From an uncultured Pseudomonadota bacterium (GTDB lineage Bacteria > Myxococcota_A > Polyangia > Fen-1088): a stretch of 64,000 nucleotides of DNA. Below, in pieces: positions 13,012 through 34,556 of this stretch. Below the pieces are notes generated by a model. The model did not search any database. It was not told the DNA's origin and saw only the letters and a list, made by a program, of their open reading frames with translations. Location: the NCBI GenBank assembly GCA_963847705.1, contig CAWKBC010000027.1, forward strand, positions 768,001-832,000, read 5' to 3'. How positions within the stretch are numbered: position 1 is the first letter of the stretch; each line of letters starts with the position of its first letter. The translations under genes and the position numbers were made by a program.

Positions 13012-13041
13012 TTGACATGCTGATCGACCGGCCGTGATAAT
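13012..13041 (+). promoter_or_regulatory. Candidate sigma-70 promoter for the TPR-TPR-kinase cluster
   Basis: TTGACA (13012-13017), an 18-nt spacer, then GATAAT (13036-13041), 19 nt before the ATG at 13061. Confidence 0.55.
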
Positions 13042-13060
13042 GCAGCTCCGGCACTCCGGC

Positions 13061-16000: not shown

Positions 16001-18097
16001 CCGGTCGCGGGCGCCGCGCCCTGGCCCCCGGCGCGGCCCGATCCCCGGCGCTTGCGCGCCCGCCGGGCCGGGGGGGCGCTGGGCGTCGCGCTCCACCTGG
16101 AGGCGGCGCTCGACGCTGAACGACAGGGTGAGCTCGGTGCGGCGCTGGCGGCCTATGGCAGTGTGATCGCGCTCGACCCGGAGCGGCTGGAGGCCTGGAC
16201 CGGGGTGCGACGGGTGGCGCGCGCGGGTGGCGATCTCCTCGGTGAGGCGCGCGCGCTGGCCCGCCTGGGCATGCTGGTTCGCGATCCCAGGCGGGCCGCC
16301 GCGCTGCTCGCGGAGGCGGCCAGCGCCTACGAGAGCGCCGGGCGCGACGACGACGCCATCGCGGTTCTCGGGCGCGCGGTCGAGCTCTGCCCGGACGACG
16401 CGGGCGCCTATGCACGGGTCCACGCGCTCCTCCGCAGGGACCTGGGGGCGCCTGGGCGGGCTGCCACCTTCGACGGTCTCCTGTCGTACCGGCTGGCGGC
16501 CGGGCCGCTGACGGCGGCCGAACGGATTGCGCTGCTGTCCGAGCGCGCGGAGCATCGGATGACGCTGCTCGAGGATCGCCCGGCGGCCTTTCAAGATTTC
16601 AAGCGAATCTTGAAGATCAGCCCCAATCACCTCGACTCGCTGTATGAATTGGCGCAAGGGGCGCTCGGCGAGCAGGACCCCCGCGCGGCGGCCCGCTGGC
16701 TCGAGCGCTACCTGACGGCGGCCGGTGGCCATGACCCGGACCGGGTGGCGGCGGCGAAGCTGGACCTGGCCGCCTGTTATGAGGCGCGTGGCGAGACCGT
16801 GCGGGCCATCGAGACGTTGCGCCTGGCGGCCCTGGCCCGGCCGGCCGATCCGACGCCGCTCGAGCGCCTGGCGGAGCTCCACCTCCGCCGCCGGGACGCG
16901 CGTGGGGCGGTGGAGGCGCTCCGGGCGGCCGCCCCGCGACTCGGCGATTCGCCGGCGCAGGCAGCCCTGGCGCTGCAGATCGGAGCCATCGAACGAGACG
17001 TCGCGCGCGATCCGGCCGGCGCGGCGGCCGCCTTCCGACAGGCGGCGGAGCTCGATCCCCTGGGCCCGGGCGCGGCCACGCTGGTCTCCCTCCACGACGC
17101 CGCCTCCGACGCGCGGGGGGCGCTGGAGGTCGTCGAGCGGGAGATTGCCGATCTCAGGCGAGCGCTGGCCGCCAATCCCCTCGACGTGCGCCGGCTGGAG
17201 CGGCTCGGGCAGTGGCTGGCGGACGCGCGCCGCCGCGGCAGCAGCGGCGCCGACCCCGATGCCGAGGCCGTGGTGGCGAACGTGCGTGGGCTGGCCGGCG
17301 GACGCGCGTCGCCCTTGCCGGCGCCCGCCGCCGTCACGCCCAAGACGGGGCGCGCCTTCCTCACCGAGATCGCCGATCGCGCGGCCGGCGGCTTCGTGGC
17401 GGAGGTCTGGCCGCACCTGCGCGAGGCGGCGGCGGCGCTGTTTCCGCCGCCGCCGCGCCCCCGCCCGGCACCGCTCGGTCCCGAGCACGCCCCGCGCGTC
17501 GCCTGGATCAACGCGGCCGCGTCGGCCGTCGGCATCGCGCGCCTCGCGATCCTCGTCGCCCGCGAGCCGGGAGCGCCTCCGGCCGCGCCGAGCGATGGCG
17601 GTGAACCATCGCTGATTCTGGCCTCTGATGCGCTGTCGTCGCCGGCGCTGCGGTTTCACGTCGGGCGGGCGCTCGGGCTCATCGCCCAGCAGACGGTCGT
17701 CCTCGGGCGGGTGAGCGCCGCCGAGCTGGCGCCGCTCTTCGCCTGCGCGGCCTTGCTGGCGGGCGCAGAGGTTCCTGCGGAGCTGTCGACCCCGGTGGAG
17801 GATCTCCTGCGCGACGTCACACGCGCCGTGGGGCGCAAGGATCGGAAGTCGCTGGCGCTGCAAGCCTCGCGCTTCGGGTTCGAGCCGTTCGATCTCGAGG
17901 CCTGGCGAACCGCGACGCTGCGGGCGGCCGATCGCTTCGGGCTGTTCGTCTGCGGAGACCCAGCCGCGGCCGCTGCGGCCATCGCCGGGGGGGCGCAGGC
18001 CGTGCCCGGCAATCCGGCGGCGGTGGATCTGCTGGGCTTCGCCCTCGGCGATCGCTACCCGGCGCTCCGGCGGGCCGTCGAGGGGGGCGGCCGCTGA
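13061..18097 (+). CDS. Giant TPR-like helical repeat protein (~1680 aa)
   Basis: Acidic N-terminus; TPR-like units such as AIGCYREALAAAPDHPGAL and AFQDFKRILKISPNHLDSL; C-terminal LRFHVGRAL...ADRFGLFVCGD. Confidence 0.75.
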   Translation: MPPGTDGDDEELVEIDVEIDGPPPVPQASAPELIADGGDTEPNRGGTPTEGPPPAPPDILEISDVVELQPPIVEAAADDLASALALYEAEAAAAEGGRKGALLLEVARLREMRDGAGEGGARAALAAARAAFASDPASVPALWLLRRLLARAGGWEELAAIYEQAIQAPLSAADPRLRAELLIARGRLLEDRLDRANDAIGCYREALAAAPDHPGALLSQLLAGARGQDAALLAEALGGLARRAESPPVRAALVIEEALAWRRAEPRDGAERALAVLEEELGRNDPGSPVGALLAELEALARAEVPAATAVQALEDLARRLESVDAGLAVALLRERARLLRQELLAPEAALETLDEAARLDPAHPVVAAERFELALALDRRDAAGELARGFLLAARRDDEAVDFALACAEAIFDPAHPDAAVEILQTPRVRARRAARADLRALELALAVVRRDPRALADAFTLGADAETHADAGSKVAALIAAGAVRAGPLGQTDVASDLYQRAIDFAASPEQARPALQVLVSLRAAAGRIEEATAILETALAASAASSGGGTSEADAAFEIWARESLVAFYADELGAPGRALPHQRRLVALRPREGAGRVRLCDLDLESAPDGLRPNERADNLLALAAEAGEPAVEIALRVTAGRALADSPEPQQSAEGLALLGQLVTVDPSGLAAAPVERAAASPAARAEIVAAELGAAVDNGPAERTRALRFRLAHHRAAAGAFAEAMAALTPLRSEGDPLARAWSYALARRAGDAFLEVAVLSEETRVPDGTLGDEAGVLLAHGEALAEAGDPQGAADSLRRAVARAPDGETAADAALLLYRLATVAATSPGGAGAALPEALEALAGAVGDDPALAAAAAREAALSAAASGSAAVVQGAATKTKLGDSPAAHAELTLLRFMTGVRAGDPKTVAESLAEIARGLADADGTVPGEAVPLLARAAARARLAGAETAEAVAVAVWETAHPPALAPALADLPVAGAAPWPPARPDPRRLRARRAGGALGVALHLEAALDAERQGELGAALAAYGSVIALDPERLEAWTGVRRVARAGGDLLGEARALARLGMLVRDPRRAAALLAEAASAYESAGRDDDAIAVLGRAVELCPDDAGAYARVHALLRRDLGAPGRAATFDGLLSYRLAAGPLTAAERIALLSERAEHRMTLLEDRPAAFQDFKRILKISPNHLDSLYELAQGALGEQDPRAAARWLERYLTAAGGHDPDRVAAAKLDLAACYEARGETVRAIETLRLAALARPADPTPLERLAELHLRRRDARGAVEALRAAAPRLGDSPAQAALALQIGAIERDVARDPAGAAAAFRQAAELDPLGPGAATLVSLHDAASDARGALEVVEREIADLRRALAANPLDVRRLERLGQWLADARRRGSSGADPDAEAVVANVRGLAGGRASPLPAPAAVTPKTGRAFLTEIADRAAGGFVAEVWPHLREAAAALFPPPPRPRPAPLGPEHAPRVAWINAAASAVGIARLAILVAREPGAPPAAPSDGGEPSLILASDALSSPALRFHVGRALGLIAQQTVVLGRVSAAELAPLFACAALLAGAEVPAELSTPVEDLLRDVTRAVGRKDRKSLALQASRFGFEPFDLEAWRTATLRAADRFGLFVCGDPAAAAAAIAGGAQAVPGNPAAVDLLGFALGDRYPALRRAVEGGGR

Positions 18098-21000
18098 TGG
18101 CCGGCGAAAAGAAACCGCCCGCGTCGGGCCGTGAAGCTGCCGACGACGGTTCGGTCGAGGTCGAGGCGCTGTTCGACGATCTGTTCGACGAGGCGCCGCC
18201 CACCGATCCGACGGCGCCGACCGTGCCGGAGCGCGACGAGGAGGTCACGCTGGAGGTCCCTGCGGTGGCCGCCAGGGCCGGGATCAACCCCAGAGCTCCA
18301 GCCGAATGGGAGGTCGCGGCTGAATCCGAAGTCGAGCCCGAGGTCGAGCCAGAAGCGCCGGCCTTCTTCGCGCCGATCCTTCCCGAGATGGAGGCGGAGA
18401 TCTGGCAGGCGGGGATTCAAGCTCTGGTGACCGTGCCGGAGCGTTCCGCCCCGCCGACGACCTCCCACGATGACTGGATCGAGGAGGCGCGCCTGTTTCA
18501 AGCAGAGAGCAACTCCGCCGAGACACCGGTGCTGGCAGCGGGGCTCCTCACCGCGGCCGCGCGTGCGGCGGAGGTCGCCGGGGAGACGGCGGAGGCCGCC
18601 AGCGGCTACGACGAGGCGCTGGCCCGCGCGCCGACGGCGCCCGATGCGCTGCGGGCGCGCGCCCGTCTGGCAGAGAGCCTGGGCGACATCGACGAGGCCC
18701 ATGCGCTGTGGGCGCGGCTGGCCATCTCGGCGGGGACCGCCGAGGAGCGGGCGTTTTATGGGGCGCTGTCGGCGGAGTGGACGCTGGCACGCCGGGGTGC
18801 GCTGCCAGCGGTGGCCGGCGAGGCGATCCCCGCCGGAGCCGCGCGGGCGCTGGCGGTCGTCGAGGAGGCGTTGCGGGGCGGCACGTCGGTCGCTCCTGCG
18901 GCAGCGTTCGCGGCGGCCGGACGCGTTCTCGGCGGGAGATTCGGCGCGGCGTTTCTCGACCAGGCCGCGCGCTTCTCGCTGGCGGCGGGCGACGCCGCTT
19001 CGGCCGCGGCTCACCGAACGGCGGCGCGCAAGATCGATCCCCAGGGCGAGACCATCCTCGGCCGCCTGCGCGAGGCCGCCTGGACGGATCGCCGGCGCGG
19101 AGGAGGCGGCAAGACAGGCAAGACAGGCGAGACCGCCGACCTCGACCAGATCCTCGCGGCTTTGCCGGCGGGATCTGCGCTCGCGCAGGCGGTCGGCCGG
19201 TGGGCGGCCGCGGCGGCGCGGCGGCGCGGAGATCCGGAGCGGGCGCTGGCCCTGCTGACCGGCCTCGGTGCGACCACGGCGGCGGCCGCGCGCGATCGGC
19301 TCGATCTCGAGTTTCTCGTCGACGGCGCGCTCGACGAGCAGAGCCTGGCACGCCTGCGTGGGTCCGCCACGGCGCCCGCGGCCGCGGCCAACTTGATCTG
19401 GATCGAAGCCGCCGACCTCGTTCGTCGCGGGGAGCACGAGGCGGCGGCCCGGCTGCTCGGGCGGGGGATCGAGGAGCACGCCGATGCGGTCCCGCTCGCG
19501 CTCCTGGCCGAGGAGATCGCGGCGGCCACCGACGATCCGGCCCTGGAGGCCGCGACGCTGGACCTCTGGCTGCGCGGCGATCCAGCCCGCCGCGCCCAGG
19601 CCGCGCTGGCGCTGGCGGCCAACCTGGAGGCGGCTGGCAGCGGCCTCAACGCGCGCGCGGCGCTCCAGACCGCCGTCGAATCGGCGCCCGAATCGGCTTC
19701 GTTCTGGGTCGCGGCCGCCTCCGACGCGCGCGCCGGTCGGCGCAGTGATGCCGCGGCGGCGCTGGGATTCGGCGCCGAGGTCTGGGAGGCGAGCAGCCTC
19801 GTCCCCGGGCTGCGGGCGGCCGCGGCGGTGAAGCTCGCCCCCGGCGATCCGGACCGCGCGCTGGCCGCGCTGGGCGCCGCCGCCGAAGGGGCGCTCTCCG
19901 AGGCTGCGCGCGCGCTCGGCCCTTCGGCCGTCGCGCGGCTGGCCGAGCGGGCAGGGGATCGGGCGGCGTTCGAGACGGCGCTCGACGCCGCCGAGGCGGT
20001 GACCCGCGAGCCGGCGCAGGCGGCCTGGCTGGCGCTCCGGCGCGCCTGGTCGATTCCCTCGCCCGCGAGCGAGGCAGAGAACGAGGCAGCGGGGGCTGCG
20101 CGCCGGCGAGCGCTCGAGCGGGCCCTGGAGATCGTTCCCCGTCATCCGCTGGCGCTGGGGCTCTTCCTCGCCGAGCCGGGGGTCGACCTGGCGGCGGCGG
20201 CCGCCGCCCTGGCCCGGGTCGGCTCGGCCTCGTCCGAGATCTCCGCGTTCAGCCGGACGATGGCGCTGGCCGCGGCGAGCACGCTCGCGCTCGGCGGGGA
20301 TCGGGAGGGGGCGCTGCGGCGCGCGGCGGAGATCCTGGCGTCGGCGCCAGCAGATCCCGAGGCGCGGACGGCGGTGGCGCGGACGGCCGCGGCGCTCGGC
20401 GGCGAGAGCGGCCTGCGCGCGCTGGCCGGACTGACCGTCGCGGCGGCCGGGCGCGACGAGGCGCTCTCGCTGGCCGTCGCGGAGGCGCGCATCGCGATCG
20501 GCGCGCGGGAGGCGGCCGGCGAGGCGCTGCGAATCCTGGACGACGGCCGATTCGGGCCCGACGCGCGGCGCGCAGGAGCACGGCTCCGTGCCTCCGACGC
20601 GGTGCCGTTTCCGTCGGGGCTCTTCGCCGCGCCGCCCGAGCAGGCGGCCGCGGAGTCGCGAGCCGCGGTGGCCGCCGTGGTGGAGGCTGCGTCGGCCGGC
20701 CGTTGGGACGAGCTGGTCGCCGCGCTCGCGGGCGCCCCGCCGCACGAGGCGGTGGCCAGCGCCGGAACGTTGGCCCTCGCATCGCTGGTGGCGGAGGGAC
20801 ATGGCGACGAGGCCGCGGCTGACCGACTGGCCGAGGCGGCGGTGGGCGCGGACGACGCGCCGTCGCCGCTCTCCACGCTGACGCTGGCGCGTGTGGTCGA
20901 CTCGGCGGCCGACACGGCGGTCCGCGCGCGGGCGTTGACGGCGGCGACGGCCCGCCTGGGCGCCGCGGAGTCGGATCGTCGCTCCGCCGCGGCCGCGCTG

Positions 21001-23061
21001 GCGGCGCGGGCGCGCCTGGAAGAGGGCGCGGGCGAGCCCGCCGCCGCGGCGGAGAGCTGGCGCGCGTCGCTGGCCGCCGAGCCGACGTTTCTCCCCGCGG
21101 CCCGCGCGTTGCGGATCGTGGCGGCGCGGACGGGTGACAGCGCGGCGACCAGCGGCGCCTCCGAGACCGAAGCGGCCTGCCTGCTGGTTCCGGCGCATCG
21201 GGTGCGCGCCTTGCTGCTGTCGGCGGCGCTGGCCGTCGAGGCCCATCCGCCCGAGCGCGAGCGATCGCTCGGACTCCTGCGCGCCGCGCTCGCCGTCGAT
21301 CCGGCGCACGACGTGGCCTTCGAACGGTTGCGCGCGCTCCTCACAGAGCTGGACGATGCGCCGGCGCTGGCCGCGGCGTTCGCGGCCCGGATCGAGGTGG
21401 CGGTCAATCCGTTCGAGGTCACCTCGCTCCGGCTGACCCGCGCCGATGTCCTGTCGGCCACGCTCGGCGATTGGGGCGCCGCCCGGGAGGAGCTGGAGGC
21501 GGTCCTGCGCCGGCAACCGGAGCACGCCCGGGCGCTCGAGCGGCTGTCGGAGCTGCTCTGGAGCCGTGAGGCCTGGAGCGAGGCGGGTGAGATCTATCTG
21601 CGCCGCGCGGTGGTCGAGCGCGATCCGGCGACGCTGCGCGGGATCTTCCTGCGTCTCGGCGAGATCTATTCGAGCCGCGTCCCCGATCCCAAGCGCGCGG
21701 CGGCGGCCTACGAGCGGGTCCTCGGCGTCGACGCCGACAACCTGGAGGCGCTGCGGGCGCTGTCGGATCTGACGGTCGCCGAGGGGGACACCAAGCGCTC
21801 GCTCCCCGTCACCGAGCGGCTGGTGGCGCGTGAGCCGGACGTCGCCCGCCGTCACAAGACGCGCATTCGGCTGGGCGAGATCCTGATGCAGACGGGCGAT
21901 CTCCGGCGCTCCGGCGCCGAGCTGCGCCGGGTGGTCGACGAGTCGCCGCGCGATCTCGCGGCGGTCGGTGCGCTGGCGCAGCTTCTCGACCGGGCGCGCG
22001 ATCCGACGGGGCGCCGCACGGTGCTCGATCGCGCCGTTCGGTTGCACCGGCAGGATCTGGCCAGCGCCGGGGTGCGGGTGGAGACGCTGCGCGCGCTGGC
22101 GACGTTGCTGACCATGCGCGAGCGCCCCCAGGCCGCGCTGGCCGCGGCTCAGCTGGTCGCCGCCGTCGGGGGTGGGACAAGGGAGGGCGTTCGCCAGGCG
22201 TCGCGGCCCGGACGGAGCCTCTTGGGGCTGCGCCGACCCGAGGTCGATGATCGGGTCTTTTCGTCGGAGGCGCTTCCGCCGGGAATCCGACAGCTCTTGC
22301 GCCAGCTCGGGCCGCTGCTTCGACCAAGCGGTCAGGAGCTGGCGCAGCGCCTCGGCCGGGAGGGGGTGGGGAAGTCCGACCGCCGGACCCGCAACACGCC
22401 GCCCCGGCCGCTGTTCGACGCCGTCGCGGCAGAGCTGGGCGCCGGCGACTTCGACCTCTACGTGAAGACGCGCGGCGGGTCGTCCGAACCGATTCCGCTT
22501 CGTGCCGAGCCGGGGAGCCCGTCGGCGCTCATCATCGGCGAGGAGATCGAGGAGCTGGGCCCGGCCGCGCTGCGCTTCGCCGCGGCCCGCCTGCTGCGCC
22601 TGACCGCGACGAACCTGGACGCCATCCTGGCCGGCTCGCCCGTCGAGGCGGGTGCGCTGCTGGTCGGGATCATCCGACAGTTCGTTCCGGACTACGAGCA
22701 CACCGAGGTCCCGGAGAGCCTGATCGCCCCCGAGATGTCCCGCGCCGAGCGGGCGATCCCGCGCAAGCTCAAGCCGCAGGTCATGCCGTTCGCGGTCGAG
22801 AGCGCGGGCGCGTTCGACCTGGGCGCCCTCCACGCCGCCACGCGCGACGCGGCCAACGCGGTCGGCCTGCTGGCGGCGGGCGATTTGCCGGCCGCGCTGT
22901 CGGTGATCCTGGCGGTCTCCGGGACCGCCCCGGTGAAACTGGGCCTCGGTGGGGTCGGGCTCACGCTCGAGGCGATCGGGGCCCACGCCGAGGCGATGGC
23001 GTTGCTGCAGTTCGCCGTCTCGGATGAGTTCGATGACCTGGCGGGCGCGCTGGAGTCGTAG
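18097..23061 (+). CDS. Giant TPR-like helical repeat protein (1654 aa), probable paralog of the upstream gene
   Basis: TGATG stop/start overlap; acidic N-terminus; TPR-like units (AAAAYERVLGVDADNLEAL); C-terminal LRFAAARLL...ANAVGLLAAGD. Confidence 0.75.
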   Translation: MAGEKKPPASGREAADDGSVEVEALFDDLFDEAPPTDPTAPTVPERDEEVTLEVPAVAARAGINPRAPAEWEVAAESEVEPEVEPEAPAFFAPILPEMEAEIWQAGIQALVTVPERSAPPTTSHDDWIEEARLFQAESNSAETPVLAAGLLTAAARAAEVAGETAEAASGYDEALARAPTAPDALRARARLAESLGDIDEAHALWARLAISAGTAEERAFYGALSAEWTLARRGALPAVAGEAIPAGAARALAVVEEALRGGTSVAPAAAFAAAGRVLGGRFGAAFLDQAARFSLAAGDAASAAAHRTAARKIDPQGETILGRLREAAWTDRRRGGGGKTGKTGETADLDQILAALPAGSALAQAVGRWAAAAARRRGDPERALALLTGLGATTAAAARDRLDLEFLVDGALDEQSLARLRGSATAPAAAANLIWIEAADLVRRGEHEAAARLLGRGIEEHADAVPLALLAEEIAAATDDPALEAATLDLWLRGDPARRAQAALALAANLEAAGSGLNARAALQTAVESAPESASFWVAAASDARAGRRSDAAAALGFGAEVWEASSLVPGLRAAAAVKLAPGDPDRALAALGAAAEGALSEAARALGPSAVARLAERAGDRAAFETALDAAEAVTREPAQAAWLALRRAWSIPSPASEAENEAAGAARRRALERALEIVPRHPLALGLFLAEPGVDLAAAAAALARVGSASSEISAFSRTMALAAASTLALGGDREGALRRAAEILASAPADPEARTAVARTAAALGGESGLRALAGLTVAAAGRDEALSLAVAEARIAIGAREAAGEALRILDDGRFGPDARRAGARLRASDAVPFPSGLFAAPPEQAAAESRAAVAAVVEAASAGRWDELVAALAGAPPHEAVASAGTLALASLVAEGHGDEAAADRLAEAAVGADDAPSPLSTLTLARVVDSAADTAVRARALTAATARLGAAESDRRSAAAALAARARLEEGAGEPAAAAESWRASLAAEPTFLPAARALRIVAARTGDSAATSGASETEAACLLVPAHRVRALLLSAALAVEAHPPERERSLGLLRAALAVDPAHDVAFERLRALLTELDDAPALAAAFAARIEVAVNPFEVTSLRLTRADVLSATLGDWGAAREELEAVLRRQPEHARALERLSELLWSREAWSEAGEIYLRRAVVERDPATLRGIFLRLGEIYSSRVPDPKRAAAAYERVLGVDADNLEALRALSDLTVAEGDTKRSLPVTERLVAREPDVARRHKTRIRLGEILMQTGDLRRSGAELRRVVDESPRDLAAVGALAQLLDRARDPTGRRTVLDRAVRLHRQDLASAGVRVETLRALATLLTMRERPQAALAAAQLVAAVGGGTREGVRQASRPGRSLLGLRRPEVDDRVFSSEALPPGIRQLLRQLGPLLRPSGQELAQRLGREGVGKSDRRTRNTPPRPLFDAVAAELGAGDFDLYVKTRGGSSEPIPLRAEPGSPSALIIGEEIEELGPAALRFAAARLLRLTATNLDAILAGSPVEAGALLVGIIRQFVPDYEHTEVPESLIAPEMSRAERAIPRKLKPQVMPFAVESAGAFDLGALHAATRDAANAVGLLAAGDLPAALSVILAVSGTAPVKLGLGGVGLTLEAIGAHAEAMALLQFAVSDEFDDLAGALES

Positions 23062-23089
23062 CGCGCCCGCGTGATAAATTGGGCCCTCG

Positions 23090-24559
<1,470 letters not shown>

Positions 24560-24600
24560 CGCGTGGAAACAGTCCATCGGTGCGTGGCTATCCGGTCGAG

Positions 24601-25594
24601 GTGAGCAGCGAGGCTGCGGCTGCACACGCCGCGGCGCTGGTGCTCGATCTTCACAACGACGTCCTCACCAAGCTCACGCACTCGAAGTACGACTTCGCGC
24701 GCGAGCACGGTCCGGCGGCGTTCTACAACCCGCTGCGCCTGGATCTCGGATCTGCCGCGCATCAAGCGCGGAGGCCTCGACGCGCTCGGCTGCCTGATGT
24801 TCTCGGGCTTCCGGATCGATCCAGGACGGCGGCGGTTCTGGCGCCAGCTCGAGCGGGCCCGCGCGCTGGCGGCCGAGAACGCCGACACGCTGACGCTGGC
24901 GCGCAACGCGGGGGAGATTCGCGCCGCGCGCGCGGCAGGCCGGGTGGCGCTGTTCCTGGGCGTCGAGGGGAGCTACGCGATCGACGACGACGTCGAGGCG
25001 GGGGTGGCCCGCCTGGCAGAAGCGGGCGTGATGTTCCTGGGGCCGCTGTGGGAGCGTGACAGCGGCGCCGGGAGCTCCTGCCGCACGGCCCCCGCGCGCG
25101 ATCGGGGCCTCACCGACCAGGGGCGCGTCCTCTGCCGCGCCTGCGACGCCGCCGGGATCCGCCTCGACGTCGCGCACGCCAGCCGCAAGACCTTCTGGGA
25201 AATCGTCGAACGGGCGGAGCGGCCGCCGTTCTCGTCGCATTCGGGCGCGGCCGGCGTCTATCCGCATCCGCGCAACCTGGACGACGATCAGATCCGCGCG
25301 CTGGCGGCGCGCGGCGGGGTGGTGGGCGTCATCTTCGTCGCGCCGTATCTCGGCGGGACGTTCTGTACGCTGGAGAGCGTGGCCGACCACATCGAACATG
25401 TGGCGCGCATCGGCGGCGACGACTGCGTCGCGCTCGGCTCGGACTTCGACGGCTTCCTGCCCCTGCCGCGCGGCCTGCGCGACGCCGGGGATCTCCCGCG
25501 GCTGACCGAGATCCTGTGGCGCCGGGGCTGGCGAGGCGCGCGCCTCGGCAAGCTGTTGGGCGAAAACGCGCTGCGGTTTTTCGCCGCCTCCTGA
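24601..25594 (+). CDS. Membrane dipeptidase (peptidase M19); +1 frameshift near 24748
   Basis: DLHND in the first frame; after removing one G the sequence reads DLPRIKRGG, LGVEG, DVAH, SSHS, RNLDD and LGSDFDG. Confidence 0.85.
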
Positions 25595-25806: not shown

Positions 25807-25924
25807 GATAGATAGGTAGTCAGAGGTGAGAGCATTCTCAACAACAAGGTGCATCAAGCGAACGGTTGAGTCCGGTCCGGTTCAATCCGTCCGCGGTCGT
25901 GGCTTCGAATTCCGCTTCGAAGCG

Positions 25925-26518
25925 ATGGCTGCGCGCCCGCTTTGTGTCCTCGTCGTGCTCGCAGCGCTGCTCGGGGGAGGTGGATGCAACCAGCTCCTGC
26001 TCGCATCGTCGGCCGCGCCCCAGCCCTTCGATGGCGGCGAGGCCGGGATCACCACCGCGCTCACCCGTGATTCGCACGCGGTCTACTTCCCGATCGGCGA
26101 CGGCACCAACCACGCGGCGCAGGTCTGCACCGACTGCCACCAGAGCGCCAACACCTTCGCCGACTTCACCTGCATCTCCTGCCACGATCATTCCGAGGAA
26201 CTCGCCGACACCCGACACGTTTACATCACCGGGTTCGTCTACCAATCCTCGGCCTGCTTCTCTTGCCACCCGACGGGCAACGAGGCAGCCATCACCCCCG
26301 ACGAGCACAGCCTCAAGTACTTCCCGATCACCGATGCCGCACACGGTTCACTGGCCTGCACCGACTGCCACCAGGACCCCACCACCTCGAAGCCCTTCAG
26401 CTGCGTCACCTGCCATGACCACAGCTCCGGCGTGGAGGCGACGAACCACGCGAGCGTCGCTGGCTACAGCTACGATTCGACCTCCTGCTACAACTGCCAT
26501 GGGGCGCCGAGCGACTAG
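25925..26518 (+). CDS. Hexaheme c-type cytochrome, probable lipoprotein
   Basis: Six CxxCH motifs (CTDCH, CISCH, CFSCH, CTDCH, CVTCH, CYNCH) in two tandem triheme units; hydrophobic leader ending GGGGC. Confidence 0.85.
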   Translation: MAARPLCVLVVLAALLGGGGCNQLLLASSAAPQPFDGGEAGITTALTRDSHAVYFPIGDGTNHAAQVCTDCHQSANTFADFTCISCHDHSEELADTRHVYITGFVYQSSACFSCHPTGNEAAITPDEHSLKYFPITDAAHGSLACTDCHQDPTTSKPFSCVTCHDHSSGVEATNHASVAGYSYDSTSCYNCHGAPSD

Positions 26519-26527
26519 GGCCGTTCC

Positions 26528-28800
26528 TTGACACCGCAGTCTGCCGTCGAGGCCCTCACGACGCGCCTTTTAGCCCTGGGACCCGGGGCGTGGTCCCTTC
26601 TGTTCGTCGGCGTGGCGGCGCTCGTGGCGCTCGTCTTCCTCGTCGTGCGGAGCCGCGAGCACCGGCGGGCGCGCGCGACGCTGGACGAGGCCCTGCGGAT
26701 GGAGCTGCACCTCCCCCAGTCATTGCACCCGGTCATCGATCCCGACGTCTGCATCGGCAGCGGCTCCTGCATCCAGGCCTGCCCCGAGGGGAGATCCTGG
26801 GGCTCATCAACGGCGTGGCCACGCTGGTCAACCCCTCGAGCTGCATCGGCCACGGCCGTTGCGCGGCCGAGTGCCCGGTCAGCGCCATCAAGCTGGTGTT
26901 CGGTTCGGCCGAGCGCGGCGTCGACCTCCCGGAGATCGACGGCTCGTTCGAGAGCAGCCGCCGCGGGATCTACATCGTGGGCGAGCTGGGAGGGATGGGC
27001 CTCATCAAGAACGCCCTCACGCAGGGGCTGCAGGTCGCGGCGCGGGTGCGGGCCGCGCTTGGACCGGCGGCGCGCCGTGGCGACGGCGAGCTCGTCGACC
27101 TCGCCATCGTCGGCGCCGGCCCGGCCGGAATCGCGGCGGCCGTCGGCGCGCGGGCCGCCGGTCTCTCCTACGCGCTGCTCGAGCAGGACACGGTCGGGGG
27201 GGCGATCGCGCACTACCCCCGGCAGAAGCTGGTCATGACCGAGCCGGTCACCCTGCCATTTCACGGCAAGTTCGGACGTCCGTTCATGGCCAAGGAGGAC
27301 CTGCTCGCCGCGCTGGAGCGGGTCATCGCCGACGCCGGGCTGGAGGTCCACGAACGGGCGAGGGTCGTGTCGGTCGACGGGCAGGCGGGCGACTTCCTGG
27401 TCACCTCGTCGCGCGGCGTCCTGCGGGCGCGGCGGGTCGTCCTGGCGATCGGCCGGCGCGGTACGCCCCGCACGCTGGGGGTGCCGGGGGACGACCTGGC
27501 GAAGGTGACCTACCGACTGATCGATCCGACCCAGTATCAAGGCAAACGGGTGCTGCTGGTGGGCGGCGGCGATTCGGCGCTGGAGGCGGCGGCGATGCTG
27601 GCCGACCAGACTTCGGCGGAGATCACCATCGTCCATCGTGCGCCCCAGTTCGCCCGTGGGCGCGCGCTCAACCGACAGAAGATGGAGGCGCTGCGGGCCT
27701 CGGGCCGGGTGCGCGCGTTCATGTCGTCCGAGGTCGCGGCGGTGGAGCCGGCCGCGGTTCGCCTGACGAAGGGCGGCGCGACGACGACCGTACCCAACGA
27801 CTTCGTGATCGCCTGTCTGGGCGGGGAACCTCCCGGGCAGTTCCTGAAGACCGTCGGCGTCGACATCCGGCGCCACCGGGGCGACCGGGCGATGGCCAAT
27901 CCCACCTTCGCCGCCCAGGTGGGCTCTGCGGGCGACGAGCGGCTCGCCGCGACGACGCTCGCGTTCGTGGGAATCGCGATCTTGGTCTTTCTCGGCGTGG
28001 CGGGCGGCCGCTACTACCTGCTGCCGGACGCCCTGCGCTACCGGGCACCCCAGCACGAGCTCATGAAGCCGTCAGGATCCTGGGGCCACGGGATCGGAAT
28101 TCTCGCCACCGGCGTGATGCTGCTGAACTTCGTCTATCCGATTCGCAAGCGGGCGCGCTGGTTGAAGCGAAGAGGCTCGATCGCCCCCTGGCTGCGCTTT
28201 CACGTGTTCGTGGGGATCCTGACGCCGCCGGTGATCCTGTTTCACTCGGCGTTTCGCTGGGGCAACCCGCTGGCGACCGCCACCTACGTCTCGCTGGTGG
28301 TGGTGGTCGTGACCGGCCTTTGCGGGCGGTTCATCTACGGCCTCTTCCGCGTCGACGCCGAGGACGGCAAGCGGGTGGCGGCGCTGCGGGGACGACTGCA
28401 ACCCGTGCTGGCGGCGCTCGGCTCCCTCCAGGGGGCGCAGATGGACCTCCCGCGCTCCGCCGCGCTGGCCCGGCTGACCGCGCTGGTGGAGGCGCCGGGG
28501 GCCCTGCCTGCGTCGGTGGGCGAGCTGCTCTGGCGGATGCCCGCCGAGGCCTGGGCGTTGCGGCGCACGATCCGTCAGCTCGAACCCCTGTTCGTCGACC
28601 GCCGGGCCTTCCCGGCGTTTCGGGCGCAGCTGCTCGATCTGCGGCGCCGCGACGTGAAGCTGCACTTCCACCGCGGGTTCAAGCGGCTCATGCACGGCTG
28701 GCGAATCTTCCATGTCGCGCTGTCGGTGGTCCTGGTCGGCCTCATCGGCGCGCACATCTGGATCAGCCTGCGCATCGGCTTCAAGTGGCTCTGGTCGTGA
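26528..28800 (+). CDS. Membrane-anchored ferredoxin + FAD/NAD(P)H oxidoreductase + cytochrome-b-like domain; -1 frameshift near 26790
   Basis: N-terminal TM; CIGSGSCIQACP and CIGHGRCAAECP; GIYIVGE; IVGAGPAG; VGGGDSALE; C-terminal TM helices with two H-x13-H pairs. Confidence 0.8.
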
Positions 28801-28819
28801 GCGGGCCTGTGGCAAAGGC

Positions 28820-30712
28820 GTGAGGAGACCGGCGCTGGTCGGCGGACGCGCGCTCGGGGTGGCTCTCCTGCTGTTGTTGCTGGGCGGCGGACGCGACGCT
28901 GCGGCCCAATTTTTTTCCCCGGGTCCCCTGGCCAAGGCGCATGCCGCGCTCGACACCAAGGGTCTCAGTCAGTGTGGCGCCTGCCACGACAAGGGGGAGC
29001 CCCGCTTCGCCAACCGCTGCCTCGCCTGCCACAGCGAGCTCGGGCCGGAGCTCAAACAGCGCGACGGCCTGCACGGGCGCATGGTCCCGGCGGTCTTGAA
29101 CCAGTGCCAGACCTGCCATCCCGATCATCGCGGCCTCGACTTCTCGCTGATCAGCTTCGGCGGGAGCGTCAAAGGATTCGATCACAAGCGGACGGGCTGG
29201 CCCTTGCGCGGGCATCACGCCCAGACCTCCTGCGAGAGCTGCCACGCCAGTCACCAGCTGGTCGACCAGACGGTGGTCCGGATGCTGGCGGCGCAGCAGG
29301 GGCGCACCACCTTCCTCGGCCTCGCCAAGCGTTGCGACAGCTGCCACTTCGACGAGCACCGGGGGCAGCTCGGCAAGGACTGTCAAAAGTGCCACGGCGA
29401 CACGGCGCTGTTCTGGAGGACCACGCTCGGCGCGTTCGATCACCAGGAGACCGCCTTCCCCCTGCGGGGGAAGCACAGGGCGGTGCCCTGCGCCGGGTGC
29501 CACGCCACCGTCGAGGATCGGGCTTCGTTCAAGCAGTTCTTCCCGCCGCCGCGCAGCCCGACCTTCATGCAGATGAAGCCGGTCGCTCACGGCACCTGCG
29601 AAAGCTGCCACAAGGATCCCCACCAGGGGTCCTTCGGCTCGAGCTGCGCCGGCTGCCACACGGAGGAGGGTTGGAACGTGATCCTCCCGGGGCGCGAGCT
29701 GTCGGCGAGCTTCCACGACCGCACGCGCTTCCCGCTCCGGGGCGCGCACGCCAGCGTGGCCTGCAAGAGCTGCCACGGGCCGTTCGGTCACCAGGCGGCC
29801 GTCTTTCGCGGGCTGCCGTTCGCCCGGTGCAGCGACTGCCATCAGGACGCCCACCTCGGCCAGCTCGCGGCGCTGCCGGGGCGGCCGGCGGCGGACTGCG
29901 CCGCCTGCCACGACGAGAGCGCGTTCAAGCCGCCGCGCTACGAGCTCGAGGCCCACGCCAGGACGCGCTTTCCGCTCGAAGGGGGGCACGCGGTCGTCGC
30001 CTGCCGCGACTGCCACCCCGTCGACAAGAGCCTGGCGGCGCGGGTGCCGCAGGAGGTGACCGTCAAGCTGGCCAGGCAGCGCCGCCCGCTGGTGGTCAGC
30101 CTGGCGGTGCTGCGCCCCAAGATTGGCCCGCAGACTTGCTCTCGCTGCCACAAGGATCCGCACGGAGGGCAGTTCGACGCCGAGATCAAGGCGGAGGACT
30201 GCGGCGGGTGCCACACCGTCAAGTCGTTCGCCGACTTGACCTCGTTCCACCACGACACCGACAGCCGATTTCCGCTGACCGGAACGCACCAGCGCACCCC
30301 ATGTGCGGGCTGCCATCGGGCCGAACAGATCCGGGCGGGCGAGGCGCCGGTGGTCCGCTGGAAGCCGCTGCCGGTGACCTGCGGCGGCTGCCACCGCGAC
30401 GAGCACCAGGGGCAGTTTTTGGCCAGCACGCTCCCCTCCGACGGCGTCGCGCGCGGCGCCGAGGGGTGCGACTTCTGCCACCAGACCACGAGCTTCAAGA
30501 CGACCGGGTTCAGGCACGACGACGCGCGCTTCACGACCTACCCTCTGCAGGGGAAGCACGCCTCCTTGCCCTGCGGGGATTGCCACCGCGCCGTCACGCT
30601 GACCGCCGAGGGGCAGGCGCTCGAGGCCGTTCGTTACCGCCCGCTGCCGCGCGATTGCCAGGGGTGTCACGTCGACTTTCACCACGGCGACTTCAGGGGG
30701 TTCGAGCCGTGA
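28820..30712 (+). CDS. Secreted multiheme c-type cytochrome (20 CxxCH)
   Basis: Signal peptide ending DAAA-Q, then SPGPL..AH; 20 CxxCH motifs counted; repeated FDH..T.FPL.G.H linkers. Confidence 0.9.
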   Translation: MRRPALVGGRALGVALLLLLLGGGRDAAAQFFSPGPLAKAHAALDTKGLSQCGACHDKGEPRFANRCLACHSELGPELKQRDGLHGRMVPAVLNQCQTCHPDHRGLDFSLISFGGSVKGFDHKRTGWPLRGHHAQTSCESCHASHQLVDQTVVRMLAAQQGRTTFLGLAKRCDSCHFDEHRGQLGKDCQKCHGDTALFWRTTLGAFDHQETAFPLRGKHRAVPCAGCHATVEDRASFKQFFPPPRSPTFMQMKPVAHGTCESCHKDPHQGSFGSSCAGCHTEEGWNVILPGRELSASFHDRTRFPLRGAHASVACKSCHGPFGHQAAVFRGLPFARCSDCHQDAHLGQLAALPGRPAADCAACHDESAFKPPRYELEAHARTRFPLEGGHAVVACRDCHPVDKSLAARVPQEVTVKLARQRRPLVVSLAVLRPKIGPQTCSRCHKDPHGGQFDAEIKAEDCGGCHTVKSFADLTSFHHDTDSRFPLTGTHQRTPCAGCHRAEQIRAGEAPVVRWKPLPVTCGGCHRDEHQGQFLASTLPSDGVARGAEGCDFCHQTTSFKTTGFRHDDARFTTYPLQGKHASLPCGDCHRAVTLTAEGQALEAVRYRPLPRDCQGCHVDFHHGDFRGFEP

Positions 30713-31590
30713 GGGGCACGCGCTGCTTGGTGCTCGCCGCGCTCTTGGTCCTGCCCGGCGCCATGACGCTGGCCGAGACGTCGGGGCCGGTCGGTGGGCC
30801 GCCGGCGCCTCCGGCGCCGCCCCGCGCGGCGCCGACCGCGGCGTTCGGTCGGGGCGGGGCGGCCACCAACTGCGCGGCGTGCCACGTCGAATCCAGCTGG
30901 TCCGAGGTGCGGTTCAACCACGATCGCACCGGCTACCCCCTGGTCGGCGCCCACGCCAAGGTGACCTGCCAGGCCTGCCACCCGACGGGATTTCGGGCGC
31001 GGGTCCCGGAGCTCTGCAGCGGCTGCCACCGCGATCGCCACGCGGGAGAGTTCGGGCTTCACTGCGAGGGCTGTCATGAGGCGACGCGCTGGGCTGAAGC
31101 GCTGTTCGGTCCCGACGCGCATCGCAGCACCGCGTTTCCGCTGACCGGCAGGCACGCGCTGATTCCTTGCCGCGAGTGTCACGGCGACATGCGCGATCGG
31201 ACCTTCTCCCAGGCGCCGCTGGCCTGCGTCGCTTGCCACCAGAAGGACTACGACAACGCGGCGCTCACCTCGCTCGACCACGTCGCCTCGCACTTCGACA
31301 CCAACTGCCAGGCCTGTCACAACACCTGGTCCTACTTTCCGGCGCGGTTCGACGCCCACGATCGCTGCTTCGTGCTGTCGTCGGGACCGCACGCCCCAAT
31401 TCGCTGCGCGCAGTGCCACACCCGCGCGGCCGGCCTGGTCGTCACCGGCGCCTGCAGCACGCAGAATTCGACCTGCACCAGCTGCCACGCGCACAGCTGC
31501 GCGCGGAGCGATCAAGAACATCAATCGGTCATGGGTTACAGCTGCAGCGACTCCAAGTGCTACCAATGCCACCTGCGCTCAGTCCCCTAG
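30709..31590 (+). CDS. Secreted decaheme c-type cytochrome (10 CxxCH)
   Basis: GTGA overlap start at 30709; signal peptide; 10 CxxCH motifs from CAACH to CYQCH. Confidence 0.88.
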   Translation: MRGTRCLVLAALLVLPGAMTLAETSGPVGGPPAPPAPPRAAPTAAFGRGGAATNCAACHVESSWSEVRFNHDRTGYPLVGAHAKVTCQACHPTGFRARVPELCSGCHRDRHAGEFGLHCEGCHEATRWAEALFGPDAHRSTAFPLTGRHALIPCRECHGDMRDRTFSQAPLACVACHQKDYDNAALTSLDHVASHFDTNCQACHNTWSYFPARFDAHDRCFVLSSGPHAPIRCAQCHTRAAGLVVTGACSTQNSTCTSCHAHSCARSDQEHQSVMGYSCSDSKCYQCHLRSVP

Positions 31591-33212
31591 CGTCGCTGCT
31601 GCTGGCGGCGGTCTCGATGTCGGCGCCGGTGCGGTCGTCGGCGGCGGCGACCGGCCAGGTCCGGTTCGTGACGGCCAGGCGCCTCTACCTCGACAAGGGA
31701 GCGGCGGATGGCTTGCGGGCGGGGGACAAGGTGACGTTCTCGCGCGAGGGGCGCGGGGCGGGCGGCTGCACGATCGATCTCGTCGGGACGCACGACGCCG
31801 TCTGCCGTGGGCGAGGGGCCTCGGCCGGCGACGTCTTCGCGCTGCCGCGCCGCCCGGCGCCTGCGTCGCCGCCGGTCCCAGCGCCGCTGCCCGCGCCCGA
31901 GTCGGACGAAACGGTGGAGAGGCGCGCCGCCGAGCTGGCCGCGTCGCCGCACGACAAGGTCGACTTCGTGCCCCAGGTCCGCACCGCCCGAGTCGCCACG
32001 GGAAACGCCGCGCTCGGCGTGGCCGTGTACGCCACCCGGCCGGGCGCGCCCCAGTATGTCGACGAGACCCTCGATGTCGCGCTCCAGCACGTTCCTCTCG
32101 GCAGCTCCAGCTTCCGGTTCGACACGGCGTTCTCGGTGGTGCGCATGCAGACCACCTCGCCGCCGCGCTTTCGCCCCGGGAGCGTGACCGAATTCTATCT
32201 GTGGGACGCCGAGATCTCGCGCCGGGAGATCGACTCGCAGACGGTGGTGGCGCTGGGGCGTATCTGGCCCTGGCACACGCCCGGTCTTCCCATCCTCGAC
32301 GGCGCGCAGCTCGGACGGCGAAACGAGCTGGGGACGGTCGAAGGGGGCGTCTACGCGGGGCTCATCCCAGACACGCTGACCCTCGCGCCGACCTTCGATG
32401 CCTGGACGACCGGCGTCTACGGCGCGCTCTCGCAACCGGGCGCGCGCGACGACACGATCCGGATGGCCGCCGAGGAGGCAAGGATCGGGGTGCGGCACTC
32501 GCCGACGGCGGGATGGGTCCGCGAGGCGCAGGGGCAGGCGACCATCGAGCTCGCGGGGGGCGGCGTCGCCGCCAGCGGCTGCCTGCGGGACGCGCCGGAG
32601 GTCGACCGCCAGCCGGTGCTGGAGCTGGCCAATGGGGAAGCCTGGGTGCGGTCCGCGTCGGTGGGGGCGCGCATCCAGGTGCGCTACCTCGGGGTGGGGC
32701 CGGAGCAGGAGCCTCTCTTGCGCGACGAGCTCCCCCGCGTGCTCGGTGGGTTCCACGGCAGCGCGGGCCTCTCCTGGGATCCGGCGCGCACCGTCGGCCT
32801 TGCCCTGAACGGCGACGCGCACCACGAACAAGAGGGGAACCTGAATGAGGTCAACGCGGGCCTCGACCTCCATTTTCCTCGCCTGTTTGGGCAGAGCGGC
32901 GGCCTCTGGCTGGGCGCCGCGGCGGGGCAGGGGTGGATGGAGAGCCGCAGCGCCTACGCGCAGATCATCCTGACCGCCCCCCGGGTCCGGCTGCTCGGAC
33001 GGGTCGGCGGCGACGTCAGCCGCTTCGCCGATCCCAGCGGCGAGGTCGCGGTCTCGGAGCTGGGCGGCTCGCTCCAGCTCGAAGGGAGGCTCACGCCGCG
33101 CCTGCGCCTGGTGGCCCGCTCGCTGGTGCGCGTTCCCCTGGCCATCGCGGGCGTCCTGCCCGACGCGACGTCGGGTCTCGTCTCCAGCCTTGATCTCGTG
33201 GCCGCGTACTAG
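31566..33212 (+). CDS. Probable outer-membrane beta-barrel protein with N-terminal soluble domain
   Basis: Signal peptide; small domain YLDKG..DGL..GD; Pro-rich linker; many amphipathic beta-strands; C-terminal aromatic residue (DLVAAY). Confidence 0.6.
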   Translation: MPPALSPLASLLLAAVSMSAPVRSSAAATGQVRFVTARRLYLDKGAADGLRAGDKVTFSREGRGAGGCTIDLVGTHDAVCRGRGASAGDVFALPRRPAPASPPVPAPLPAPESDETVERRAAELAASPHDKVDFVPQVRTARVATGNAALGVAVYATRPGAPQYVDETLDVALQHVPLGSSSFRFDTAFSVVRMQTTSPPRFRPGSVTEFYLWDAEISRREIDSQTVVALGRIWPWHTPGLPILDGAQLGRRNELGTVEGGVYAGLIPDTLTLAPTFDAWTTGVYGALSQPGARDDTIRMAAEEARIGVRHSPTAGWVREAQGQATIELAGGGVAASGCLRDAPEVDRQPVLELANGEAWVRSASVGARIQVRYLGVGPEQEPLLRDELPRVLGGFHGSAGLSWDPARTVGLALNGDAHHEQEGNLNEVNAGLDLHFPRLFGQSGGLWLGAAAGQGWMESRSAYAQIILTAPRVRLLGRVGGDVSRFADPSGEVAVSELGGSLQLEGRLTPRLRLVARSLVRVPLAIAGVLPDATSGLVSSLDLVAAY

Positions 33213-33410
33213 CAGGGCGTCGGCGCAAGGCGACGGTGAGCGCAGCGAACCATGCCCGACATCGTGGCGCCGAAGGCGCCCCAGGAGTCGGATCTCGATG
33301 CCCACGTCGGAAACGAATAGGACGCGGTTCGACGCAGCGTCCAATCGCGCGGCCCGTCGGCCGCGGTGTGCCGGCGGCGTTCCGGCGATGTGTTAGCTTG
33401 GGCGGCCGAC

Positions 33411-34556
33411 GTGCTGAATCTCCGCAACCTCGACCGCGGTGAGATGGGCGAGGCGCTCGCGTCCTGCGGCGTGAGCAGCCAGGTCGCCCAGCGGGTGTTC
33501 GCCCGGGTGCATGGCCTGGGCGCCACCGGGTTTCCACCGGGCTCGGTGCGGGGGCTCGCGCACGCCACGACCGCGGCCCTGGAGCGCGGCTGCGAATGGC
33601 CGGACCTGGAGGTCATCGAGCGGCGGCGGGCCGCCGACGGGTTCGTGAAGTACCTGTTTCGGACCGCCGACGGTCACGCCATCGAGGCGGTGCGGATTCC
33701 CTTGCCGGACCCGGCCGACGCGCGTGCGCTCAAGGAGCGGCGCCGGGCCGGTGAGGCGGCCGGGCTCCAGACGTTGCCGACGGCGAAGTACACCGTCTGT
33801 CTCAGCTCGCAGGTCGGGTGCGCGCTCGCCTGCGATTTCTGCGCGACCGGGCGCCTGGGGGGGATTCGCAGCCTGAAGACCTGGGAGATCCTGGCGCAGC
33901 ACCGGCTGATCGCCGCCGAGGCCGATCATCCGGTGAGGGGCGCGGTCTTCATGGGGATGGGCGAGCCGTTCCTGAACTACGAGAACGTGATCCGGGCGGC
34001 CCGCATCCTCTGCGATCCGGCGGGGCCGGCCATCTCCGCCAAGGCCATCTCGATCTCGACCGCCGGCGTGCTCCCCGCGATTCGCCGCTTCACCGCCGAG
34101 GGGCATCACTTTCGCCTCATCCTGTCGCTGGGTGCGCCGCTGGGCGCGCAGCGGCGGGTGCTGATGCCGATCGAGGACCGCTGGCCGGTGGTCGACGTGC
34201 TGGCCGCGCTCCGCGAGCATGCCGAGGCGCGGGGCGTGCGCGCCATGCTGGCCTACGTGGTCATCGGGGGCGTCAACACCTCGCCCGCGCACGCGCGTGC
34301 GCTGGGCGAGTTGCTGGCCGGAATGCGCGCCAAGCTGAGCCTGATCGACGTCACCGACGAGACCGGCCGCTACCAGCGTGCCGGCGACCAGGAGCTGGCC
34401 ACGTTCCGCGACGCCCTGGCCGCGCTCGGTATCCCCGTTGCCCGGCGGTACTCGGGCGGCGCCGAGATCGGCGCCGCCTGCGGAACCCTGGCCGCCACCC
34501 GACAGGGCGGCCAGGATGCCTTGGTTCAGGTTCGGCTCGAGAGCGAGCGGCTCTAG
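33411..34556 (+). CDS. RlmN/Cfr-family radical SAM RNA methyltransferase (divergent)
   Basis: KYLF, CLSSQVGCALACDFCATG, FMGMGEP, ISTAG and C-terminal GAEIGAACG. Confidence 0.85.
   Translation: MLNLRNLDRGEMGEALASCGVSSQVAQRVFARVHGLGATGFPPGSVRGLAHATTAALERGCEWPDLEVIERRRAADGFVKYLFRTADGHAIEAVRIPLPDPADARALKERRRAGEAAGLQTLPTAKYTVCLSSQVGCALACDFCATGRLGGIRSLKTWEILAQHRLIAAEADHPVRGAVFMGMGEPFLNYENVIRAARILCDPAGPAISAKAISISTAGVLPAIRRFTAEGHHFRLILSLGAPLGAQRRVLMPIEDRWPVVDVLAALREHAEARGVRAMLAYVVIGGVNTSPAHARALGELLAGMRAKLSLIDVTDETGRYQRAGDQELATFRDALAALGIPVARRYSGGAEIGAACGTLAATRQGGQDALVQVRLESERL

Follow-up and report, generated by a model that had tools for sequence, protein, structure and literature searches.

The locus described here raises the question of why a flavoprotein with NAD(P)H motifs should share a polypeptide chain with a dihaem-like membrane domain, in an operon of multihaem cytochromes, and in which direction electrons would run through such a protein. 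The gene occupies positions 26528..28800 of the window, the 64,000-nucleotide stretch of DNA from an uncultured bacterium (GTDB class Polyangia) that was analysed, and all of its features, like those of the operon, lie on the plus strand. We consider it probable that the intact protein is the cytoplasmic entry to a predicted PCC3-type trans-envelope wire, handing electrons from NAD(P)H outwards to multihaem cytochromes.

The gene starts with TTG at 26528, and its window copy changes frame at a run of G (26788..26791), where a one-base deletion, recognised from relatives' contigs and the alignment, splits the reading frame. The N-terminal piece (26528..26788) has 87 codons and carries an anchor helix, an invariant LHP and the first ferredoxin motif; the helix is predicted to cross the membrane at residues 21-40 (26588..26647) by hydropathy on the intact relative P0003 (757 residues), in whose model it extends over residues 19-57. 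This piece matches Fer4_2 in Pfam (E 2.9e-6) and is 92% identical to residues 1-87 of P0003, and the second piece, of 669 residues, is 91% identical to the remainder. The relatives' contigs from all four of four runs (one contig per run) hold one extra base at 26787-26791. A sequence-only reading of the window, made earlier, had placed every one of its motifs correctly and had proposed that one G be restored here; the one-base break was borne out, and the relatives read Glu-Gly-Gln at this point, so the missing base is not necessarily a G. The search for relatives had 7998 candidates, of which 7160 reached E 1e-20, and the best 120 of the 7160 included 107 full-length, intact fused proteins, which were aligned; the close ones are labelled Polyangia (e.g. 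P0069). A programmed frameshift was ruled out, the break being common to no relative, and an assembly error is likely. A high indel rate across the genome was not found at ~51 conserved places, where the frame changed only here and in one C14 candidate; because such changes are that rare, a recent true mutation is possible, and the window copy is either mis-assembled or recently inactivated. The gene for a membrane dipeptidase (M19) ~2 kb upstream (24580-25594) is likewise split, its start (with LVLDLHND) lying in the frame of 24580 and the rest in that of 24797; a short stretch near 24740-24755 is repeated.

The core of the flavoprotein consists of FAD and NAD(P)H domains of the thioredoxin reductase (TrxR)/YpdA type (27094..27882; GAGPAG, GGGDSA and HR-x5-R) lacking a CxxC motif. 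Upstream of its first Rossmann motif, at 26911..27060, lies a segment that corresponds, by profiles and by comparison with a sister protein, to the C-terminal FAD-binding strand, the GE (for GD) motif and the helix of the TrxR fold. In the window, FESSRRGIYIVGELGGMGLI..A..QG precedes DLAIVGAGPAG (27094 on), and VGGGDSALE..VHR follows it. An AlphaFold2 model of P0003 (pLDDT 86.6, pTM 0.73) has YpdA as its best fold match, with residues 187-451 of the model superposed on residues 1-273 of the 326-residue chain (Z 22.9, rmsd 4.8, 263 aligned), and Foldseek agrees. The last 50 residues of YpdA find no partner after model residue 451, which is where the unfused relatives stop. A profile of the 50-residue segment ahead of the Rossmann motif, made from 81 sequences, gave 29 PDB matches up to E 10 (best E 0.011), 26 of them to pyridine-nucleotide flavoproteins, where the match falls on the T-x-x-x-G-x-x-x-x-G-D motif that follows the NAD domain. 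Individually, 52 of the 81 segments match the model for YpdA and 38 that for TrxR, each with a score that is weak on its own, and the window's own segment as a single query had no match in PDB or NCBIfam. The cleanest control is provided by nature in the sister protein at locus L115, which is unpermuted: the profile region 126-386 is found at its residues 3-267 and the region 75-116 at 274-315. The TrxR fold is thus circularly permuted here, as the sequence-only reading had claimed, and the normal TrxR domain order was not seen when the predicted structure was superposed on YpdA.

The same reading had noted the missing redox CxxC, and none was found in the FAD/NADPH core of the 106 scorable fused proteins (of 107) or of 46 unfused ones. 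YpdA/Bdr and the TrxR-type ferredoxin-NADP reductases (FNRs; 7A76, 3AB1, 3LZW; PMC8564101) share with it the TrxR fold without CxxC, the GxGxxG and GxGxxA motifs and the Arg motif for the 2'-phosphate, whereas the present protein is permuted, with its C-terminal motif moved out of the normal order, has Glu where the GD motif has Asp, carries a fused dicluster ferredoxin and a membrane anchor, and is 23-27% identical to them. Its match to the YpdA profile TIGR04018 (E 2.9e-45) covers only positions 1-274 of 316 and reaches 154.5 bits against a cut-off of 339.9; that to the thioredoxin reductase profile TIGR01292 reaches 63 bits against 343. In Pfam at E 0.1, Pyr_redox families are present and PF08022 and PF08030 absent. 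With a TrxR fold devoid of CxxC and with NAD(P)H motifs, the protein agrees with what defines TrxR-like ferredoxin-NADP reductases, and since a ferredoxin is in addition fused next to the moved FAD motif, a reaction mode of this type is likely. A preference for NADPH would be expected because of the GxGxxA motif and a (H/Y)R-x5-R variant of the HRRxxxR motif. We found neither a permuted flavoprotein of this kind nor a flavoprotein with such clusters in the literature, in which a passing mention in supplements is possible.

The ferredoxin domain contains two motifs, the first of which (C-x2-S-x2-C-x3-CP, CIGSGSC..CP; 26750..26785) has Ser at the position of the second Cys, and the second (C-x2-H-x2-C-x3-CP, CIGHGRC..CP; 26842..26877) has His there. 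The claim that both lack the second Cys holds for the window, and the His of motif 2 is invariant together with the six Cys, in 107 of 107 fused proteins (from the best 120 of 7160 matches) and 69 of 69 unfused ones; as a family-wide feature, the Ser of motif 1 failed. The fused proteins have Ser in 103 cases and Cys in four, and the 69 unfused ones have Cys in 49, Ser in 17, Ala in two and Gly in one. The six Cys and the His lay outside the search patterns, which did include GELxGMGLI and GGGDxALEA. By these alignments only the cluster His is a family trait, and the Ser is a lineage variant. A further His, His67 of the LHP just ahead of the ferredoxin (26726-26728), is kept in 107 of 107 fused and 68 of 69 unfused proteins. 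The CXX?XXC ferredoxins described by Child et al. 2018 (PMC6237146) from actinobacteria and Rhodopseudomonas likewise replace the second Cys by His or Ser, and every one that was examined contained [3Fe-4S]; those are small, single-cluster partners of P450s, whereas the domain here is a fused dicluster one and its cluster type may differ. His-ligated [4Fe-4S] clusters are known from hydrogenases (PMC6237146). The motif 2 site could accordingly house a [3Fe-4S] or a Cys3His [4Fe-4S] cluster, and that of motif 1 a plain [4Fe-4S] cluster, turned into a Ser/3Fe version in this lineage.

The C-terminal membrane domain (27940..28800) has five helices in a model of pLDDT 92.7 and by hydropathy and charge, with W-x3-H-x13-H on helices 3 and 5; a helical hairpin on the cytoplasmic side separates helix 4 from helix 5. 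The predicted topology puts the flavoprotein, a K/R-rich loop and the hairpin all on one side of the membrane. Two H-x13-H pairs had been reported for this part, and they are found at codons 28201/28243 and 28711/28753; the four His are kept without exception in the 71 aligned domains, the two full motifs occur in 69 and S/TGxxGR in 68 of the 71 (TGLCG in the window). The window-family profile matches stand-alone inner-membrane proteins (IMPs) of PCC3 at E 1e-17 to 1e-44, and the domain is that already described protein and not a new one; its His pairs and the analogy to ferric reductases were published in 2017 (PMC5566968), and it is the flavoprotein that the PCC3 papers cited here do not mention. 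A position proposed as a third haem ligand, H521, was rejected: it is His in 107 of 107 fused proteins, but Tyr in 54 and His in nine of 71 IMP domains.

Fold searches with the membrane model gave cytochrome b561 (the E. coli superoxide oxidase; Z 10.3), a designed dihaem bundle (10.0), FdnI (8.9) and NOX5 and STEAP4 (both 8.6), and unrelated helical bundles scored 10.6-10.7, including a chemoreceptor bundle at 10.7. These values, suggestive only, do not single out NOX/ferric reductase (FRD) domains, as the Z scores of NOX5 and STEAP4 fall within the range common for helical bundles. Foldseek gave no match at E 0.001 for the membrane model, a PDB profile search with the alignment returned only coiled-coil noise, and PF01794 was matched weakly by three of the 71 domains (best E 0.0088). 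A complex prediction for the unfused flavoprotein and IMP of locus L054, with haems and FAD included, scored 0.12 (mark 0.32) and speaks neither for nor against their contact.

Nine bases ahead of the gene lies a 6-haem c-type cytochrome with a lipoprotein-like N-terminus (25826..26518), and downstream, in the operon that the gene heads, follow a 20-haem cytochrome (28712..30712, its true start probably near 28820), a 10-haem cytochrome of the same repeat family (30709..31590) and, as the last gene of the operon, a likely outer-membrane beta-barrel (31587..33212). The 20-haem protein, with 20 CxxCH motifs, is a homologue of the PCC3 periplasmic multihaem cytochrome; it aligns over ~600 residues with 18-27-haem proteins next to proteobacterial IMPs and has matches in 64 of the best 80 loci of at least 570 relatives (E 1e-36 to 1e-168). 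The putative barrel is haem-free, is conserved in nine fused loci and has a weak relationship with the porins of PCC3 (hhalign E 0.002, probability 13.8%); the best four outside matches of its profile are the barrel genes of split clusters, at a weak E 0.03-0.5, and the nearest named Atlas clusters are barrels (0.86-0.88). Cytochrome c assembly genes are present in the genome. No RNA data set was listed for this DNA, and the DNA data sets had shares of 0.05-0.07. Directly after the operon lies an RlmN/Cfr-family radical SAM gene (33366-34556) that scores below all NCBIfam cut-offs, and on the other side, at 13034-24559, are two adjacent Ala-rich repeat proteins (~1650-1690 aa) followed by a Ser/Thr kinase-like gene. 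Such long Ala-rich repeat proteins and Ser/Thr kinase-like genes are typical of myxobacteria.

PCC3 as described by He et al. 2017 (PMC5566968) has an IMP of the same build, ~300 aa long, in which W-x3-H-x13-H stands on helices 3 and 5 of five and S/T-G-x-x-G (SGxxG) on helix 4, a homologous periplasmic cytochrome of ~21 haems and an outer-membrane barrel. The Amphritea locus L054 contains a 63- and 21-haem pair, which is the pair given for Amphritea atlantica in that paper. The window differs in that the Fe-S flavoprotein is added as a fifth gene, in this case joined to the IMP, and the Myxococcota form has 6-, 20- and 10-haem cytochromes with a shorter barrel in place of a 15-85-haem extracellular cytochrome; set beside the 10-85 haems that define the extracellular cytochrome of PCC3, the window operon offers the 10-haem and the 6-haem gene. 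The accessible portions of the PCC3 literature describe a four-gene cluster without a flavoprotein (PMC5566968, PMC9900912, 10.1101/2025.02.27.639646, PMC12016527, PMC8788666, PMC13386937), and in the supplement of PMC12016527 the gene ahead of the IMP Slit_1446 of strain ES-1 is an HD phosphohydrolase. Single cytochromes with 63-67 CxxCH motifs were seen in Thiodiazotropha and Amphritea (L063:2191-7251, L082:2212-7161, L054:1137-5891).

A scan of GTDB gave at least 570 relatives of the flavoprotein, the best 80 loci of which were analysed. It is fused in 11 of these 80, a separate IMP gene lies in the flank of 55 of the 69 unfused loci, and for ten of the remaining 14 the contig ends less than 5 kb upstream; 63 of the 66 IMP-bearing loci among the 80 hold a cytochrome of at least nine haems. 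In a tree of 41 cores (two rows left out), a branch with support 93/81 separates the 14 fused rows from the others. In the window's phylum some match was present in 141 of 301 genomes, with five fused among the matches listed. At nine loci (L014, L018, L020, L025, L027, L040, L044, L049 and L077) ~3-4.5 kb of other genes separate IMP and flavoprotein, and L120:10735-15375 has two flavoprotein paralogues 2 kb apart within one multihaem cluster that contains a single IMP.

The converse test took 121 genomes from the family to which the Gallionella locus L085 belongs and searched them for IMP and flavoprotein one at a time. The two were found together in 58 genomes, only the IMP in two, only the flavoprotein in two and neither in 59 (three weak IMP rows and seven weak flavoprotein rows dropped, two G335 pieces merged). 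Within 10 kb of an IMP lay 58 of the 62 flavoprotein copies, 57 of them head-to-head, and 58 of the 80 IMP copies had a flavoprotein within that distance; the other 22 are mostly second copies, and 19 of these 22 copies are in genomes with a flavoprotein elsewhere. In the class of L054 (399 genomes; 4-5 candidates scored per genome, two genomes left out), 42 genomes had both, four only the IMP, three only the flavoprotein, in one case beside an uncounted IMP fragment, and 350 neither, and 40 of 49 copies lay within 10 kb of the partner. Thirteen weaker flavoprotein matches lack the N-terminal part, nine of them within 10 kb of a weak IMP match; they are probably of the L115 type, which was examined at one locus. 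The sampled genomes are related and these counts therefore not independent; in them, the flavoprotein tracks the IMP almost perfectly.

This association bears on the 2017 model, in which the IMP is a quinone-reactive cytochrome b (PMC5566968). That proposal is in keeping with MsrQ, which has the same His layout and carries ubiquinone (PMC12525009), with the quinone-linked cytochromes b among the fold matches (E. coli superoxide oxidase and FdnI) and with the 22 of 80 IMP copies that have no adjacent flavoprotein. A quinone-fed IMP would have no need of an NAD(P)H flavoprotein, yet the latter is absent from only two of 60 and four of 46 IMP-bearing genomes in the family and class samples and is fused to the IMP here, and the quinone of MsrQ was concluded to be an acceptor rather than the donor (PMC12525009). 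We regard a quinone-fed IMP as unlikely.

Under the reading that we favour, with NAD(P)H as the source, the dinucleotide would be oxidised at the FAD site of the permuted TrxR fold on the cytoplasmic side, and the FAD would release single electrons through the two tethered iron-sulfur clusters to two predicted b-haems, at H559/H729 (inner) and H573/H743 (outer; P0003 numbering), which would carry them across the inner membrane. From there they would reach the operon's periplasmic multihaem cytochromes and the likely outer-membrane barrel. The sequence-only reading had proposed a NOX-analogous transmembrane reductase built from different parts. In layout this stands: as in the NOX/FRD family, including MsrQ (PMC3591440, PMC12525009), a cytoplasmic NAD(P)H flavin module is paired with two His pairs on helices 3 and 5. 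The dehydrogenase differs, being a TrxR-fold module at the N-terminus with an Fe-S relay, whereas NOX has a C-terminal FNR-fold FAD/NADPH pair; MsrQ takes its electrons from a separate cytosolic NADH oxidoreductase (PMC12525009). FNR-type C-terminal domains and an equivalent of His-119 of NOX2 (PMC3591440) are lacking, and the partners are multihaem wires. The analogy does not extend to the membrane part, a known PCC3 IMP, or to the acceptor: the residue four positions beyond the second His of TM3, which is the signature His of NOX, is Arg in the window and His in nine of 71 domains, and the neighbouring multihaem cytochromes are the most likely acceptor rather than O2.

Transfer of electrons from NAD(P)H to c-type haems is downhill, and the membrane potential favours their outward movement; the outward direction would thus follow from general bioenergetics. 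The opposite course, from Fe(II) to NAD(P)+ through such a chain, is uphill in redox terms and runs against the membrane potential. An inward wire, in which an extracellular donor (Fe(II) minerals, sulfur compounds, partner cells or electrodes) would feed the Fe-S clusters, FAD and finally NAD(P)+, would profit from the reversibility of TrxR-type FNRs, but it would have to go against both gradients with no coupling site in sight. The carriers, by record titles, also include Novosphingobium, Hyphomonas, Methylophilus and myxobacteria, none of them known for lithotrophy. PCC3 came to light in iron oxidisers, and many Gallionellaceae have it (PMC5566968; PMC9900912), and the IMP of one PCC3 copy is up-regulated in the iron-oxidising Sideroxydans CL21 (10.1101/2025.02.27.639646), whereas both PCC3 clusters of S. 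lithotrophicus ES-1 are down-regulated on Fe(II) (PMC8788666). On balance an inward wire strikes us as improbable, and export of electrons by PCC3 as more likely than oxidation of Fe(II). Since export would spend rather than make proton-motive force, redox balancing or the supply of reductant to the outside is more likely than respiration. A superoxide producer of the NOX kind or a YpdA-like thiol-disulfide reductase that merely sits beside cytochrome genes has in its favour the YpdA/Bdr proteins as closest sequence and fold matches, likewise without CxxC, and the His layout of NOX TM3/TM5 (PMC3591440), but is very improbable given a YpdA score of 154 bits against a cut-off of 340, the Arg in place of the NOX signature His and the large multihaem cytochromes in 63 of 66 IMP loci (best 80 of at least 570), superfluous for an enzyme that reduces O2 or thiols.

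The permuted domain also occurs in other settings. In the window's class, L106:6236-8308, L107:5776-7929, L108:6176-8263 and L109:6310-9015 encode a second architecture, in which a tetrahaem cytochrome c, a membrane helix, a ferredoxin and the permuted TrxR domain form one protein; its second ferredoxin motif is CCGxxxC, a 5-haem gene adjoins it and no IMP was seen in the stretch. A third (L110:4495-6684, L111, L112, L113, L114, L116) has the permuted TrxR domain at the N-terminus, followed by a polytopic membrane part that bears CxxxC motifs and by a ferredoxin at the C-terminus, an arrangement that we take to be NapH-like. The unpermuted sister at L115:7300-12190 has cNMP-binding-like repeats and a ferredoxin, and its gene is followed directly by an IMP-like gene and a 10-haem cytochrome. 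In PCC4 (PMC5566968), an IMP with the His motifs of PCC3 stands beside redox genes, and the L115 locus, from its gene content, is probably of the PCC4 type; its flavoprotein, in normal TrxR order with cNMP-like and C-terminal ferredoxin parts, sets it apart. The repeats suggest that electron export might there be under cyclic-nucleotide control.

Surveys of iron-oxidising bacteria list PCC3 clusters among the candidate iron oxidases, and a dedicated NAD(P)H flavoprotein that tracks the IMP or is fused to it predicts that they export electrons rather than take them up. For the thioredoxin-reductase fold, the findings would provide a naturally occurring circular permutation that recurs in three architectures or more. 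Whether PCC3 at large is a widespread, quinone-independent conduit from NAD(P)H to the outside, serving no iron oxidation and entered through a convergent analogue of NOX, is a wider proposition that we put forward tentatively, at slightly less than even chances; in that analogue, a single polypeptide here, a permuted TrxR-fold reductase would be connected by a His-tuned iron-sulfur relay to a dihaem membrane domain. If true, it would mean a route that bypasses the quinones from cytoplasmic reductant to the cell surface, found in roughly one of every nine genomes in the sampled class.
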